Assembly (NCBI GenBank): GCA_028706105.1
Contig: JAQWCF010000002.1
Location: 1 to 56,061 of the forward strand
Direction: 5' to 3'
Source of the DNA: Candidatus Margulisiibacteriota bacterium
GTDB lineage: Bacteria > Margulisbacteria > Riflemargulisbacteria > GWF2-35-9 > DYQY01
DNA: 56,061 nucleotides
This document shows, piece after piece, positions 4,408-46,399 of the stretch (its first letter is position 1; each line of letters begins with the position of its first letter). A program made the position numbers and the translations under genes. Below the pieces are notes generated by a model. That model was given only the letters and a program-made list of their open reading frames with translations. It was not told the origin of the DNA and searched no databases.

Positions 4408-4616
4408 TTAGCTCGCTTCGACAATAAATAATCCCCCAATCGCTTCACTTCGACTGGCTCAGTGTAAATGCGACTTTCCCCCTTTGATGCTTCGATAAAC
4501 TCAGTACAAGTTTCGTGGGTCTTAAAAGTATATACGTTTATTTATTATTTATACCTCAAGGTCTATGTGTTAGTCACTTAGCATTTTAATTAGTTATTCA
4601 TAAACATTTTGTTTCT

Positions 4617-4725
4617 GTTATTCCTGTGTATTATTTAGTCATTCCAGCAACTTCTATCTTCATTCCTGAGCATTTATTTAGTAATTCCTGTTTTTTCCTA
4701 TGTTATTCCCGCGAAGGCGGGAATC
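4617..4725 (+). repeat. five phased GTyATTCC(N)G motifs ending in the palindromic element
   Basis: Motif copies start at 4617, 4638, 4659, 4681 and 4702, spaced 21, 21, 22 and 21 nt. The last copy is the 5' arm of the hairpin gttattcccgcgaaggcgggaatc (4702-4725). Confidence 0.7.
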
Positions 4726-4728
4726 TAT

Positions 4729-4734
4729 TACAAT
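4729..4734 (+). promoter_or_regulatory. -10-like TACAAT 6 nt upstream of the GIY-YIG ATG (leaderless-type)
   Basis: The plus strand reads TACAAT-aataga-ATG. Confidence 0.4.
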
Positions 4735-4740
4735 AATAGA

Positions 4741-5022
4741 ATGTATTACATTTATATAATTACAAATAAACCATTTGGCGCGTTATATATTGGCATGACA
4801 AATAATTTGGTTCGTAGAATTTATGAACATAAAGAAAAATTAATTGATGGTTTTTCAAAAAAATATGATCTTGATAAATTAGTTTACTATGAGTCATATA
4901 AAACTGCTAAAGAAGCGATTATAAGAGAAAAAAGAATGAAAAAATGGAATAGAGATTGGAAAATATGTAAAATAATAGAAAATAATTCAGAATGGGATGA
5001 TTTATATGAAACTATTGTTTAG
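4741..5022 (+). CDS. GIY-YIG nuclease family protein (small, YhbQ/COG2827-like)
   Basis: 93 aa. The N-terminus YYIYIITNKPFGALYIGMTNNLVRRIYEH matches the GIY..YIG..R..EH signature. Confidence 0.85.
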   Translation: MYYIYIITNKPFGALYIGMTNNLVRRIYEHKEKLIDGFSKKYDLDKLVYYESYKTAKEAIIREKRMKKWNRDWKICKIIENNSEWDDLYETIV

Positions 5023-5075
5023 GTTTTAGATTCCCGCCTGCGCGGGAATGACAGAACGTGACGGGGGATTACTAG

Positions 5076-7448
5076 TTATACCAAAATATTCATCATTAGT
5101 GCTAGTTCTTTTAATAGCGTATTGTTTTGGTCTGCTTTGTGAAGAAGAAAAGCTTTTGTTTCAGCAGAAGATCTGTTGAATTTAATTTCCAATTTTTCAT
5201 AGATGCCAAGGAAAGATATTGCAATATTGATATCTTTAGGGTCTTTGCCTTTTTCTATTTTGCTTATTAATGAATTTAGGTATTTTTCTAAATAAGCACG
5301 AGTTTCATTAACATTTAGATTTAGATGTAGGCTATGACTAAGTTTAATTATTCTTAGTGCTGGCTTTATGTTTTTGTTATTCCAGCTAGTTATTTCTTGG
5401 ATTTCACTTAATAGTTTTGCTGACATGATTATCTCAATTGCTGATTTTATTTCAGTAGGAAGATTTCCGCCCATTCTAACAGTTTCTTCTATTAAATCTC
5501 TAAAGCCAGTATATAATTTATTGAGGTCTTTGTTCAGTCTATTGGTTTTCTTAGACCAGAGTATTTTCATGATGTCAGAGCTTTCTTCAAAGTTAAGGTC
5601 TATCATGCTTAGTGTCTTCTGATAATTATTTTTAATTATTTCTGTTGAGTTATTTGGATCATCCAGTAGTTCTTTTTTGATGGAATTTAGGTCAAGAATC
5701 GTTTTACTGATAGATGTTTTGACTTGCCCATTTTTTTCTGAGAGTAAGGCTGAGTGTTCTGTTGTTTTCCCAGTATAGATATTCATTATTGAACAGTTAA
5801 GTGCTCTAAAGGTGGTATCTTCGTTTTTAAAAGTAAGATCATTAATAGGACTGACGGTATATAGATACACTTCTTGTTCTTTAATTTTATTGGTTAGATG
5901 TGCTTTGACTATAAACTGGTTAATAGCCTTTTCTCTAGTTAATTCGTAGGGTTTTATCCATTTTTTGTAAATCGCATCTCCGTCATGCGCAGAATTAATG
6001 TTGCTTTTAGCTTCTTTCAAGTAAGCAATAAGAACCTTTTCTAAATCTACTTTAGTATGTTGTTGTCCATAGTAAATAGCAGCATTGGCATATTTAATGA
6101 TTTGAACAGTTTCTATTCCAGATATCTCAGAGAAAAACCATCCACAACTAGTAAACATTAGTTGACTAAATCTCTGACTTTCTAATAATTCTAATATTTT
6201 TACTTTTTGTTCATCGGTAAGAGATCCTTTGGCGTTTTTTTCAAAAAACTTTTCACTAGACCAGCTACCGTGAAAGACGAAGTAATAATCATTTCTTGCT
6301 TTTTCGATGTTAGCTAGCAGAGGTGTCGCTTCTTTTTCGTAAGTTTCCCATAATAAATCTCGAAGCGCATTAAGTCCTTCTCTCAGTGGCTTTCTCCATT
6401 CTTGATTCCACCCAGCGCCACCACCAGTGCTACAGCCACAATTTTCTTTCCATCTTCCAACGCCATGGACACAGCTCCATGCAGTGCCTTCATGTTTAGT
6501 TCCTTCTTTAAGTACTGCTTCAGAGATAGGGGCAAATCTTTCCAGAAAAGCACCATAATTAATTTGTTTCATGTTGTACTCTTTGGCAAGATGTTTAAAA
6601 AAGTAGGAAAGGCACATGTCCCCAAACGGTTCATGGTGTCCGTAGCTTTCGCCGTCAGTAGAGGCTGTTACTAGCGTAGGTCTGCCTTGGTTGGGTTTAG
6701 CTGCTGCATCTAGCCTCTCTGCAAAAGTGTGAGCGTCTTTTAGGAGATGCTCAAAGCTGATAGCTGTTGAGATTGGGGCATCATAAAAAAAGACATCTAA
6801 GTATTTTTCTTTGGTTTCATCAACAAAAACTCGGTAGGGTTGAGTTGGGTCAACAGTTCCATTAGAAACATTTATCCATTCATTAGAGAAATATGTTTTT
6901 ACCTTTTCTGCTTGGAAGGGAGATAGCACTGTGAACTTAATTCCATTAGCTATTAAAGCTTTTACTGTCTCCATATTGATAGCAGTTTCTGCAAGCCACA
7001 TACCCTCTGGGTCACGTCCGAAGTGTCTTTTAAAATCAGCTATTCCCCATTTGATTTGTGTTTGTTTGTCTCTTTCGTTGGCTAAAGGCATGATTATATG
7101 GTTATAAACCTGGGCAATAGCATTACCGTGTCCGTTGTTGTTTTCTTTGCTAATTTCATCTGCTTCAACTATTTTTTCATATGTACTTTTGTCGTTATCG
7201 TAAATCCAGTTCATTAGAGTGGGCCCGACATTGAAGCTTAAGTATTGAAAATTATTAATAATATCAACTATTTTTCCATGAGGTGAAAGAATTCTTGATG
7301 AGGTGTTTGGTCGATAACATTCATCGTTAATTTTTTCATTCCAATCGTGATAAGGGAACGCGCTGTCTTGTCTTTCTATTTTATTAAGAAAGGGGTTCTC
7401 TCTCGGTGGTTGATAAAAGTGTCCGTGAATGCAAATATACTTGTTCAT
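5076..7448 (-). CDS. glycoside hydrolase family 57 protein (alpha-glucan-active, long DUF3536-type C-terminus)
   Basis: 790 aa. The N-terminus YICIHGHFYQPPRENPF is typical of this GH57 subgroup. A GGGGGG SD precedes the ATG. Confidence 0.8.
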   Translation of the reverse strand: MNKYICIHGHFYQPPRENPFLNKIERQDSAFPYHDWNEKINDECYRPNTSSRILSPHGKIVDIINNFQYLSFNVGPTLMNWIYDNDKSTYEKIVEADEISKENNNGHGNAIAQVYNHIIMPLANERDKQTQIKWGIADFKRHFGRDPEGMWLAETAINMETVKALIANGIKFTVLSPFQAEKVKTYFSNEWINVSNGTVDPTQPYRVFVDETKEKYLDVFFYDAPISTAISFEHLLKDAHTFAERLDAAAKPNQGRPTLVTASTDGESYGHHEPFGDMCLSYFFKHLAKEYNMKQINYGAFLERFAPISEAVLKEGTKHEGTAWSCVHGVGRWKENCGCSTGGGAGWNQEWRKPLREGLNALRDLLWETYEKEATPLLANIEKARNDYYFVFHGSWSSEKFFEKNAKGSLTDEQKVKILELLESQRFSQLMFTSCGWFFSEISGIETVQIIKYANAAIYYGQQHTKVDLEKVLIAYLKEAKSNINSAHDGDAIYKKWIKPYELTREKAINQFIVKAHLTNKIKEQEVYLYTVSPINDLTFKNEDTTFRALNCSIMNIYTGKTTEHSALLSEKNGQVKTSISKTILDLNSIKKELLDDPNNSTEIIKNNYQKTLSMIDLNFEESSDIMKILWSKKTNRLNKDLNKLYTGFRDLIEETVRMGGNLPTEIKSAIEIIMSAKLLSEIQEITSWNNKNIKPALRIIKLSHSLHLNLNVNETRAYLEKYLNSLISKIEKGKDPKDINIAISFLGIYEKLEIKFNRSSAETKAFLLHKADQNNTLLKELALMMNILV

Positions 7449-7547: not shown

Positions 7548-7587
7548 CCTTTGCTATGGCAAAGGTTTCCCCCTTATTAAGGGGGAA
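7548..7587. repeat. two adjacent hairpins (cctttgc/gcaaagg and ttccccctt/aagggggaa)
   Basis: Stems read directly. Members of the dispersed hairpin family. Confidence 0.55.
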
Positions 7588-7640
7588 TAAATGTAAGCTA
7601 TACTGTATATGAATATGTTAGTCATTCCTGGTTTACTATC

Positions 7641-7741
7641 GTCATTCCCGCGTAGGCGGGAATCCATTCATTAGAATTTATTTTTAGTAAGTAAGTTTAA
7701 ATAGGAAATAAATACTAGATTCCCGCCTACGCGGGAATGAC
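7641..7741. mobile_element. MITE-like unit: perfect 24-nt terminal inverted repeats around a 53-nt AT-rich spacer
   Basis: 7641-7664 (gtcattcccgcgtaggcgggaatc) is the exact reverse complement of 7718-7741 (gattcccgcctacgcgggaatgac). An extra GTCATTCCTG half-site lies at 7621-7630, 20 nt upstream. Confidence 0.6.
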
Positions 7742-7750
7742 AGAGGGGGA

Positions 7751-9001
7751 TTAAATCCCTACACGAATAATGCTTGCAACGTCTTTGATGCAAGACAAGT
7801 CTTTGATCTGTTCGATTGCTTTGTTTTTATTGCCTTCTTTGATGGTGTGTGTGACTATAACTAATTCAGCATCTTCTCCCGCACCTCTTTGGATTGCTTC
7901 TTTGATACTGATTTTCATTTTAGCAAAAATACCACTTATTTCCGCAAGTACGCCTGGTTTGTCTTCTACAAGTAGTCTGATGTAATACTTAGAGACAATT
8001 TCATCTTTAGGTAGAATGGTTATCGTTTTCTTTTTCTCTGTGCCATAAGCTGTTCCGTTGATAATATTTAGTAGGTCTGCCCAAACAGAACCTGCAGTTG
8101 GGATGCTTCCTGCGCCTCGTCCATAGAACATACTTTCTCCAGTAGCATCACCTTCTACGTAGACAGCATTGAAAACATCGTTAACCGCAGCAAGTGGGTG
8201 AGTGTTGTTAAGTATAACTGGATGTACTCTTAGCTCTAAGCCCTTGTCAGTATTTCTAGCAATTGCTAGGAGTTTAATGCTGGCATCAAGGTTTTTGGCA
8301 TAGTTTATATCTTTTGCAGATATTTTGGTTATGCCTTCCATTAAAATTTGTTCAATATTTATGTCAGATTGAAAGGCAATAGACGCTAAAATAGAGAGTT
8401 TGTAGCAACTGTCCATTCCTTCTACATCAGAGGAAGGATCAGCTTCTGCATAACCAAGTTTTTGAGCCTCTTTTAGCACCACGGCATAGTCAGCGTTTTC
8501 TTTTTGCATCTTAGTTAGAATAAAGTTGGTTGTTCCGTTAAGGATACCAACTATTTCTTTAAAGTTGTTTGGCGAAAGTGAATCTTTTAGATTGTTAATA
8601 ATAGGAATAGCTCCGCCAACAGATGCTTCATAGAGTAATGAAACGTTGTTCTCCTCAGCTAGCTTAAGTAGTCCCTTGCCATATTTTGCTAAAACAAGCT
8701 TATTAGCTGTTACTACATGCTTTTTAGCTTTAAGTGCAGATTCGATAATTGTTCTGGCAGGTTCATCTCCACCGATAAGCTCAATAATAATGTTTATTTC
8801 TGGGTCAGCAATAAGTTCTTTAAAGCTGTTTGTTTTCTGAAAGGAAGACAAATCATAAGGACAGCGACTAAAGTCTAAGTCACAGATGGTCTTTAGCTTA
8901 AAGTGTTTTTTGGCGTGAGAGTTAAGCTTATCAAAGTTGTTTTGATAAAGAGCGATAACGCCTGAGCCGATTGTTCCTGTTCCGATAAGTCCGATATTCA
9001 T
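7751..9001 (-). CDS. hom: homoserine dehydrogenase
   Basis: 416 aa with the GxGxxG N-terminus, the NGTTNFILTKM and LGYAEADPSSDVEG motifs, and a C-terminal ACT-like domain. Confidence 0.92.
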   Translation of the reverse strand: MNIGLIGTGTIGSGVIALYQNNFDKLNSHAKKHFKLKTICDLDFSRCPYDLSSFQKTNSFKELIADPEINIIIELIGGDEPARTIIESALKAKKHVVTANKLVLAKYGKGLLKLAEENNVSLLYEASVGGAIPIINNLKDSLSPNNFKEIVGILNGTTNFILTKMQKENADYAVVLKEAQKLGYAEADPSSDVEGMDSCYKLSILASIAFQSDINIEQILMEGITKISAKDINYAKNLDASIKLLAIARNTDKGLELRVHPVILNNTHPLAAVNDVFNAVYVEGDATGESMFYGRGAGSIPTAGSVWADLLNIINGTAYGTEKKKTITILPKDEIVSKYYIRLLVEDKPGVLAEISGIFAKMKISIKEAIQRGAGEDAELVIVTHTIKEGNKNKAIEQIKDLSCIKDVASIIRVGI

Positions 9002-46283: not shown

Positions 46284-46325
46284 AAGATAAAAGATGATTA
46301 GATGATTAGAAACTCAGTTGACATA

Positions 46326-46349
46326 GTCATTCCCGCGTAGGCGGGAATC
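46326..46349 (+). repeat. solo copy of the 24-nt palindromic element (gtcattcccgcgtaggcgggaatc)
   Basis: Identical to 7641-7664. Confidence 0.9.
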
Positions 46350-46399
46350 TATGGGTTCAAATGGGAAAAGATAAAAGACTAAAGATAGGGGGAGTTGTT

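Follow-up and report, generated by a model that had tools for sequence, protein, structure and literature searches.

The window analysed here, 56,061 nt in length, is one contig (C9) of a draft genome of 1.93 Mb in 147 contigs with 34% G+C, and between its tgt and GH57 genes it carries a short nuclease gene enclosed by two hairpins in inverted orientation. A sequence-only reading of this DNA had placed a GIY-YIG open reading frame exactly between a 24-nt palindromic element and its inverted partner, and all of the positions that it gave for them proved correct (Table 1). The 93-aa product matches the Pfam GIY-YIG family PF01541 over residues 1–74 (E = 1.2e-16) and has no other domain. The two arms of the cassette are 93% complementary over 27 nt, and as single-stranded DNA the left arm folds at −9.2 kcal/mol (z = −4.1) and the right arm at −8.9 kcal/mol (z = −3.5); each of the copies in the window forms the same 8-bp stem and 4-nt loop, at about −9 kcal/mol and with z from −3.5 to −5.3. 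The core ATTCCCGC-N4-GCGGGAAT occurs five times in the window (at 4705, 5030, 7644, 7719 and 46329), as against none in 100 shuffles. A consensus promoter scan found no confident promoter for the nuclease gene and left the hexamer TACAAT uncalled, which by its position before the ATG possibly marks a leaderless start.

Table 1. Positions of the nuclease cassette, its hairpins and the associated repeats within the window.
Feature	Position	Strand	Remarks
Four diverged half-sites (tag and 5′ arm): GTTATTCCTG, GTCATTCCAG, TTCATTCCTG, GTAATTCCTG	4617–4701	+	Spaced 21–22 nt; outside the left hairpin, on its 5′ side
Left NTS/SRM hairpin GTTATTCCCGCGAAGGCGGGAATC, CGTC-1 REP type	4702–4725	+	8-bp stem, 4-nt loop; tag mutated to GTT
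TACAAT, −10-like hexamer	4729–4734	+	6 nt 5′ of the ATG; read from sequence
ssnA-like gene, single-domain GIY-YIG nuclease	4741–5022	+	93 aa, stop codon included in the interval; Pfam match
Right NTS/SRM hairpin GATTCCCGCCTGCGCGGGAATGAC, inverted	5029–5052	−	GTC tag outward, head-to-head with the left arm
GGGGGATTA, end module of a different composite hairpin repeat	5063–5071	+	Context, not part of the cassette; inverted copy at 4429–4437
Single 5′ half-site GTCATTCC	7621–7628	+	20 nt upstream of the left arm of the dimer
Gene-less head-to-head NTS dimer	7641–7741		Arms at 7641–7664 (+) and 7718–7741 (−); 53-nt non-conserved spacer
Solitary NTS copy	46326–46349	+	Upstream of a glycogen-synthase-like gene; exact SRM match

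The nuclease and its family

A gene of this kind has been characterized in Neisseria meningitidis, where Chenal et al. (Nat Commun 2025, PMC11893778) described SsnA as a single-domain GIY-YIG protein of 94 aa belonging to CDD cd10448, and counted as homologues those sequences that either align with CAX49033.1 by tblastn at E < 1e-10 across more than 75% of its length or score above 100 against cd10448 by rpsblast. At least one flanking Ssn-related motif (SRM) accompanied 71% of the ssnA homologues, and motifs stood on both sides in 42%; the Neisseria element itself, NTS (Neisseria Transformation Sequence), reads CGTCATTCCCGCGMAVGCGGGAATCYRG and is a superset of dRS3 (PMC11893778). The hairpin is bound by SsnA in single-stranded form only, and the cut falls upstream of it at a distance of a few nucleotides; cutting depends most on the GTC that precedes the palindrome, and binding on the C that follows it; the substitutions Y6A, Y17A and E64A abolish cutting, and three further homologues, found in N. 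elongata, N. wadsworthii and Wolbachia pipientis, behave alike (PMC11893778).

The element found here agrees with the published NTS in its tag, its stem and the C that follows, and the copies in the window depart from the strict 28-mer by two to three mismatches (first base, loop and last base). Exact matches to the published SRM pattern lie at 7640–7667, 7715–7742 and 46325–46352, and the genome as a whole contains 23, compared with 0–5 in ten shuffles. Six residues of the protein, Y5, Y16, R26, H30, E63 and N82, are invariant in an alignment of seven orthologues, and Y5, Y16 and E63 each lie one residue off Y6, Y17 and E64 of SsnA, an equivalence that is drawn from position in a protein one residue shorter and not from direct alignment. 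By layout, by repeat identity and by the positions of these residues, the gene and its flanks are very probably (at roughly 90%) an NTS-ssnA-NTS cassette of the Ssn family. The resemblance to the known systems extends from the single-domain GIY-YIG protein of 93–94 aa, with catalytic residues at equivalent positions, to the framing of the gene by inverted, GTC-tagged hairpins of which dozens more copies exist, here all intergenic. There are also differences from the systems of Chenal 2025: the copies number about 30 and not hundreds, the arms that flank the gene are each one base off the search pattern (GTT for GTC on the left, the last base on the right), and the host is an uncultured bacterium.

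If the protein acts as the Neisseria and Wolbachia enzymes do, it would ignore duplex DNA and bind the hairpin when the DNA is single-stranded, as in replication, repair or DNA uptake, and would then nick the tag-bearing strand 5′ of GTC, at a distance of a few nucleotides. Its presumed genomic target sites would be the remaining copies, about 30 in the form of singletons and head-to-head dimers. The tag at 4702–4704 is GTT and not GTC. Because the GTC tag was the most important element for cleavage in the published mutagenesis, the upstream hairpin of the nuclease gene itself may be a poor substrate.

Searches with the 93-aa protein returned no relative among PDB sequences, no exact copy in the assembly index, and from NCBIfam only a sub-threshold match to the group I intron endonuclease model TIGR01453 (23 bits against a cut-off of 56). 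Homing endonucleases of the I-TevI type combine a nuclease with a separate DNA-binding domain, and their genes lie in introns or stand free in phage; such an identity was ruled out by the single domain of 93 aa, the chromosomal intergenic setting and the TIGR01453 score below cut-off.

The pairing of gene and hairpin recurs well beyond this genome. Five related genomes hold seven orthologues, six of them full-length at 42–51% identity and the seventh truncated with 57% over its matched part. All seven are flanked by tagged hairpins, and in five of the seven these form a clean inverted pair (GTCAT.../...ATGAC); of the others, one locus (L010) shows no inversion of its downstream hairpins, and at another (L034) the downstream arm was judged by eye only. 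The stems at the orthologues differ from the stem found here, as in GTCATCCCAGACTTGATCTGGGATCC or GTCATTGCGAGG...CCTCGCAATGAC. Among GTDB species genomes, the 80 closest homologues show 48–68% identity, the best being in Flavobacteriaceae, and their other hosts include Micavibrio, Chloroflexota, Acidobacteriota, Planctomycetota and candidate-phyla bacteria. A GTCAT-tagged hairpin lies upstream on the gene strand in 55 of these 80, downstream on the other strand in 59 and on both sides in 50. The closest proteins are found outside the host phylum, the best match in 40 sampled genomes of the same phylum reaching only about 57% identity; because the nearest relatives of the protein lie in other phyla, horizontal acquisition is suggested, on a same-phylum sample that is small at 40 genomes.

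Dispersed hairpins and their turnover

With up to two mismatches to the NTS core allowed, the genome gives 34 oriented hits, which amount to about 30 distinct elements when symmetric ones are counted once, and a reversed control gives none. No copy falls inside a stop-to-stop frame of at least 150 aa, and all are intergenic. The five pairs in the genome are, without exception, arranged head-to-head with their GTC tags outward; a variant hairpin sometimes serves as the right arm, and the dimer spacers are not conserved. The gene-less pair that the sequence-only reading had pointed out near the cassette is real, both of its arms being exact SRM matches. The base before GTC may be A, T, G or C in this genome, and the left arm of the cassette has TGTT.

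These properties are largely those of the CGTC-1 REP, which Di Nocera, De Gregorio & Rocco (BMC Genomics 2013, PMC3733652) identified with Neisseria dRS3 and Rickettsia RPE-6 and described as an 8-bp stem with a 4-nt loop that occurs mostly as head-to-head dimers, no dedicated enzyme being known at that time. The element found here shares with it an 8-bp stem that starts with AT, a 4-nt loop, an unpaired (C/T)GTC tag at one end, an intergenic location and a predominance of head-to-head dimers with spacers of 20–100 nt. It differs in the variability of the base before GTC, and in that one of the dimers encloses a GIY-YIG gene, an arrangement that is the one seen in Chenal 2025. The sequence-only reading had supposed a link between a small GIY-YIG nuclease and a family of REP-like palindromes; it was right, and the link had already been published as the Ssn/NTS(SRM) system (PMC11893778). 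The nuclease-repeat pairing at this locus is therefore not new, having been published in 2025, and it is the half-site array described below that goes beyond the main texts of the two papers. What the cassette itself adds is one lineage, Margulisbacteria, to the host range of Ssn/NTS.

Hairpins and gene do not always travel together, as counts of pattern hits on both strands indicate (symmetric elements being counted twice in these genomes). One genome (G016) has 25 NTS hits and no nuclease homologue at E ≤ 1e-5; another (G003) also has 25, and the hairpins beside its two homologues are of another kind; a third (G001) has three hits and no close homologue. From the counts in G016 and G003, hairpin populations can occur where no cognate gene lies close by, or where there is none.

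A comparison with relatives, which had been proposed along with the original observation, shows that the locus is not invariant: three genomes of the same genus (G001–G003) and one of the same family (G004) are without the cassette at tgt/GH57. The two genes are neighbours in all of these genomes, and the spacer between them measures about 15–130 nt in the four relatives versus 686 nt here. The spacer between hom and GH57 is likewise short in G001 and G002, at 50–65 nt and without the gene-less dimer, and in G003 and G004 an unrelated small gene occupies it instead of the dimer. The product of that small gene (loci L121 and L124) starts MGTHKDLDIWKES..., at the place where the dimer sits in the window. 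The hom/GH57 intergenic spot thus seems to take up varied insertions. Cassette and dimer have been either gained in this lineage or lost elsewhere, and together the two sites provide clean between-species evidence that both kinds of unit, Ssn cassette and gene-less dimer, come and go.

The extra DNA at tgt/GH57 is a mosaic of about 640 nt, made up of an inverted composite repeat ended by GGGGGATTA, an AT-rich stretch, the half-site array and the cassette, and on this ground a single clean insertion of 351 bp was rejected. No target-site duplication was found either at the cassette, whose flanks read ...ttcctat/GTT and GAC/agaacgt, or at the dimer, whose flanks read ...actatc/GTC and GAC/agagggg, and this lack at both loci ruled out a classical IS or MITE.

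The same observations bear on the possibility, raised in the sequence-only reading, that the nuclease mobilises or maintains the hairpins, with the gene-bearing unit as an autonomous element and the gene-less dimers as non-autonomous ones, a proposal that is compatible with membership in the Ssn family. It would resemble the REPIN/RAYT systems of REP-associated tyrosine transposases, reportedly described by Nunvar in 2010 and by Bertels and Rainey in 2011. As in those systems, a single-copy nuclease gene stands between inverted hairpin repeats that are also scattered as inverted doublets; unlike them, with their HUH/Y1 transposase of the IS200/IS605 type and their GTAG tag, the enclosed gene encodes a GIY-YIG hydrolase and the tag is GTC, so that the enzyme that defines REPIN/RAYT is not the one present. 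The layout, with head-to-head arms around a single gene and gene-less head-to-head dimers elsewhere, is that of an insertion sequence, the presence of cassette and dimer varies among congeners, and the closest homologues are in other phyla, all of which fit a replicator. Against it stand the lack of target-site duplication at either locus, dimer spacers that are not kept between copies, the ~640-nt mosaic where a clean 351-bp insertion would be looked for, and the persistence of a hairpin population in a genome in which no homologue was found (G016). There is also a chemical objection, since GIY-YIG nucleases hydrolyse DNA and are not known to carry out strand transfer. Chenal et al. themselves likened NTS-ssnA-NTS to an insertion sequence and drew the analogy with RAYT/REP, with mobility offered as a hypothesis only (PMC11893778). 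On balance we regard a replicator of this sort as a genuine possibility, if a doubtful one.

Half-site arrays on the presumed cut side

The sequence-only reading had also noted that the 5′ half of the motif recurs at regular intervals upstream of the left arm, and the five half-motifs, including the one at 4702, are positioned as it described, two of them being imperfect (TTCATTCC at 4659 and GTAATTCC at 4681). With at most one mismatch to GTCATTCC, half-sites lie 21, 43, 64 and 85 nt upstream of 4702. Positions 1–10 of the units are 82% identical in pairwise comparison and the spacers 38%, where 29% is expected at random. Tandem Repeats Finder called no array at 4617–4701, because the spacers are too diverged.

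The arrangement is not peculiar to the cassette. For the 34 oriented hits in this genome, a half-site is found 18–24 nt upstream of the tag (with a mode of 20–21) in 11 cases, against 0.07 expected, and none is found downstream of the tag within 120 nt. At the Ssn loci of other genomes, 286 tagged hairpins have 21 half-sites 16–24 nt upstream and essentially none downstream at that range, and the hosts include Acidobacteriota, Rifleibacterium, Planctomycetota, a gammaproteobacterium and candidate-phyla bacteria. Half-sites also accompany many gene-less copies in many phyla, their unit number varies from one to four without pattern, and the arrays always lie on the side of the hairpin that SsnA cuts in vitro. 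Three young arrays (C91, L033 and L106) are tandem duplications of about 10 nt of 5′ flank together with the tag and the 5′ arm, and in another (L101) the unit comprises tag, arm and loop; in older arrays, such as that at 4617–4701, the core alone survives. Half-site arrays go unmentioned in the main texts of Chenal 2025 (PMC11893778) and Di Nocera 2013 (PMC3733652), and phased 5′ arrays are thus a further point in which the present system differs from the main-text account of Ssn/NTS. The word “tandem” is absent from the main text of Chenal 2025, and in Di Nocera 2013 it refers only to head-tail dimers and to clusters in which units recur along with flanking DNA (PMC3733652).

Tentatively, and with rather little confidence, we suggest that the phased arrays were left behind by, or take part in, the action of Ssn in vivo. 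Two routes can be envisioned within this suggestion, and our low confidence applies to it as a whole. In the first, repeated nicking 5′ of the tag would be followed by template-switch or fill-in repair that duplicates the segment from the cut to the loop. In the second, each unit could stand in for the 5′ arm and pair with the one 3′ arm; SsnA accepts split hairpins, made of two half-molecules, and loop extensions in vitro (PMC11893778). As single-stranded DNA, the segment 4610–4732 folds into the canonical hairpin only, and pairing of an upstream half-site with the 3′ arm is not favoured when the proximal arm is present. Were the suggestion true, the positions and frequency of cutting by Ssn enzymes would for the first time be traceable in genomes, through the arrays, which would also be a clue to the origin of the repeats. 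Since they lie on the cut side, are strongly enriched and recur across phyla, they could help in testing Ssn nucleases for activity on the host's own chromosome and for a part in generating repeats.

The phasing had at first been compared with stacked protein-binding sites, such as those of a transposon end, or with iterons, and in that case the array would be a platform on duplex DNA for loading of the nuclease or some other protein. The regular spacing of 21–22 nt, the retention of a 10-nt core while the spacers decayed, and the one-sided enrichment given above speak for a platform of this kind. However, SsnA does not bind duplex DNA (PMC11893778), the number of units follows no pattern, and the arrays at C91, L033, L106 and L101 are recent tandem duplications with identical spacers, which speaks for a process of duplication and not for selected sites. 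The comparison found no support in what the half-sites are, namely copies of the tag and 5′ arm, situated on the cut side and present at gene-less copies in many phyla, and we consider a binding platform unlikely.

Neighbouring repeats and other GIY-YIG genes

In searches of Rfam, the regions 7641–7741, 4674–4764 and 5007–5096 gave sub-threshold matches to the Wolbachia sRNA WsnRNA46 (37.5 bits, with a gathering score of 65.3) and to Francisella FtrB, the match of the gene-less dimer at 7641–7741 being to WsnRNA46. To judge from these matches, the suggestion is that both sRNA families were built on the same kind of hairpin repeat. The hairpins might on this account act mainly as RNA, as 3′-end stabilisers, terminators or small RNAs, among which the GIY-YIG gene merely happens to lie; this would suit their uniformly intergenic location, several just after stop codons, the inclusion of such hairpins in the Rfam families just named, and the argument of Di Nocera et al. 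that many REPs are transcribed (PMC3733652), but it leaves unexplained a linkage of gene and hairpin in 50 of 80 homologues across phyla that chance does not account for, it is at odds with the lack of RNA binding by SsnA (PMC11893778), and the stems are followed by no T-run, so that we hold it to be very unlikely. A role of the hairpins as terminators was rejected on the last of these grounds.

A second family of repeats is interspersed with the first. The module GGGGGATTA has 24 copies in the genome where about 6.6 are expected, and it typically ends a composite repeat of the form CCCCCTTxATAAGGGGG, a variable hairpin, and then AGA-GGGGGATTA. Composite repeats lie in the window at 4429–4480 (−), 5053–5071, 7568–7590 and 7742–7753, and also on contigs C40, C54, C102, C113 and C141, and their clustering with NTS copies makes for mosaic intergenic regions, much like the mosaic elements of Neisseria. 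The sequence-only reading had noticed that the cassette and the gene-less dimer are both followed by “...gacag(a)...gggggatta” and had taken this for a shared insertion context. The common sequence is real, and its interpretation is better replaced by mosaic clustering, because this second family clusters with NTS and is present at tgt/GH57 in G002 without any NTS; the module GGGGGATTA is present there, again without NTS, in both G002 and G004. As a target site, “gggggatta” was rejected, since it is a module of another repeat family.

The genome has four small GIY-YIG genes besides that of the cassette, and a 533-residue open frame on contig C47 that we take to be UvrC. With regard to the proposed association of the element with GIY-YIG genes, none of the four small ones carries it, which leaves the link intact because they belong to other clades: one is 33% identical to the cassette protein and the rest are undetectable by tblastn. 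Most NTS copies lie far from any GIY-YIG gene, as would be expected of a dispersed family of the REP type.

Three of these small genes are found beside tRNA sequences. One (C140:8503–8715, at about 1372–2140 of locus L003, G000:C140:7003–10215) is directly upstream of tRNA-Ser(TGA) and is preceded by a duplicate of about 33 nt of the 5′ end of that tRNA, split by a palindrome of about 91 nt (TCCCGAA...TTCGGGA); a gene-less counterpart consists of a 5′ fragment of tRNA-Gln with the same palindrome inside it, just before tRNA-Gln(TTG). Another (C109:3897–4112, locus L006, G000:C109:2397–5391) comes just after tRNA-His(GTG) and has on either side a direct repeat of about 55 nt (near C109:3820 and 4195) in which the 3′ end of tRNA-His and the sequence following it are duplicated. 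The third (C12:2950–3159 on the minus strand, locus L002, G000:C12:1450–3507) adjoins an apparent tRNA 3′ end at the end of its contig, where ARAGORN called no tRNA, and upstream of it are two direct repeats of about 115 nt in tandem.
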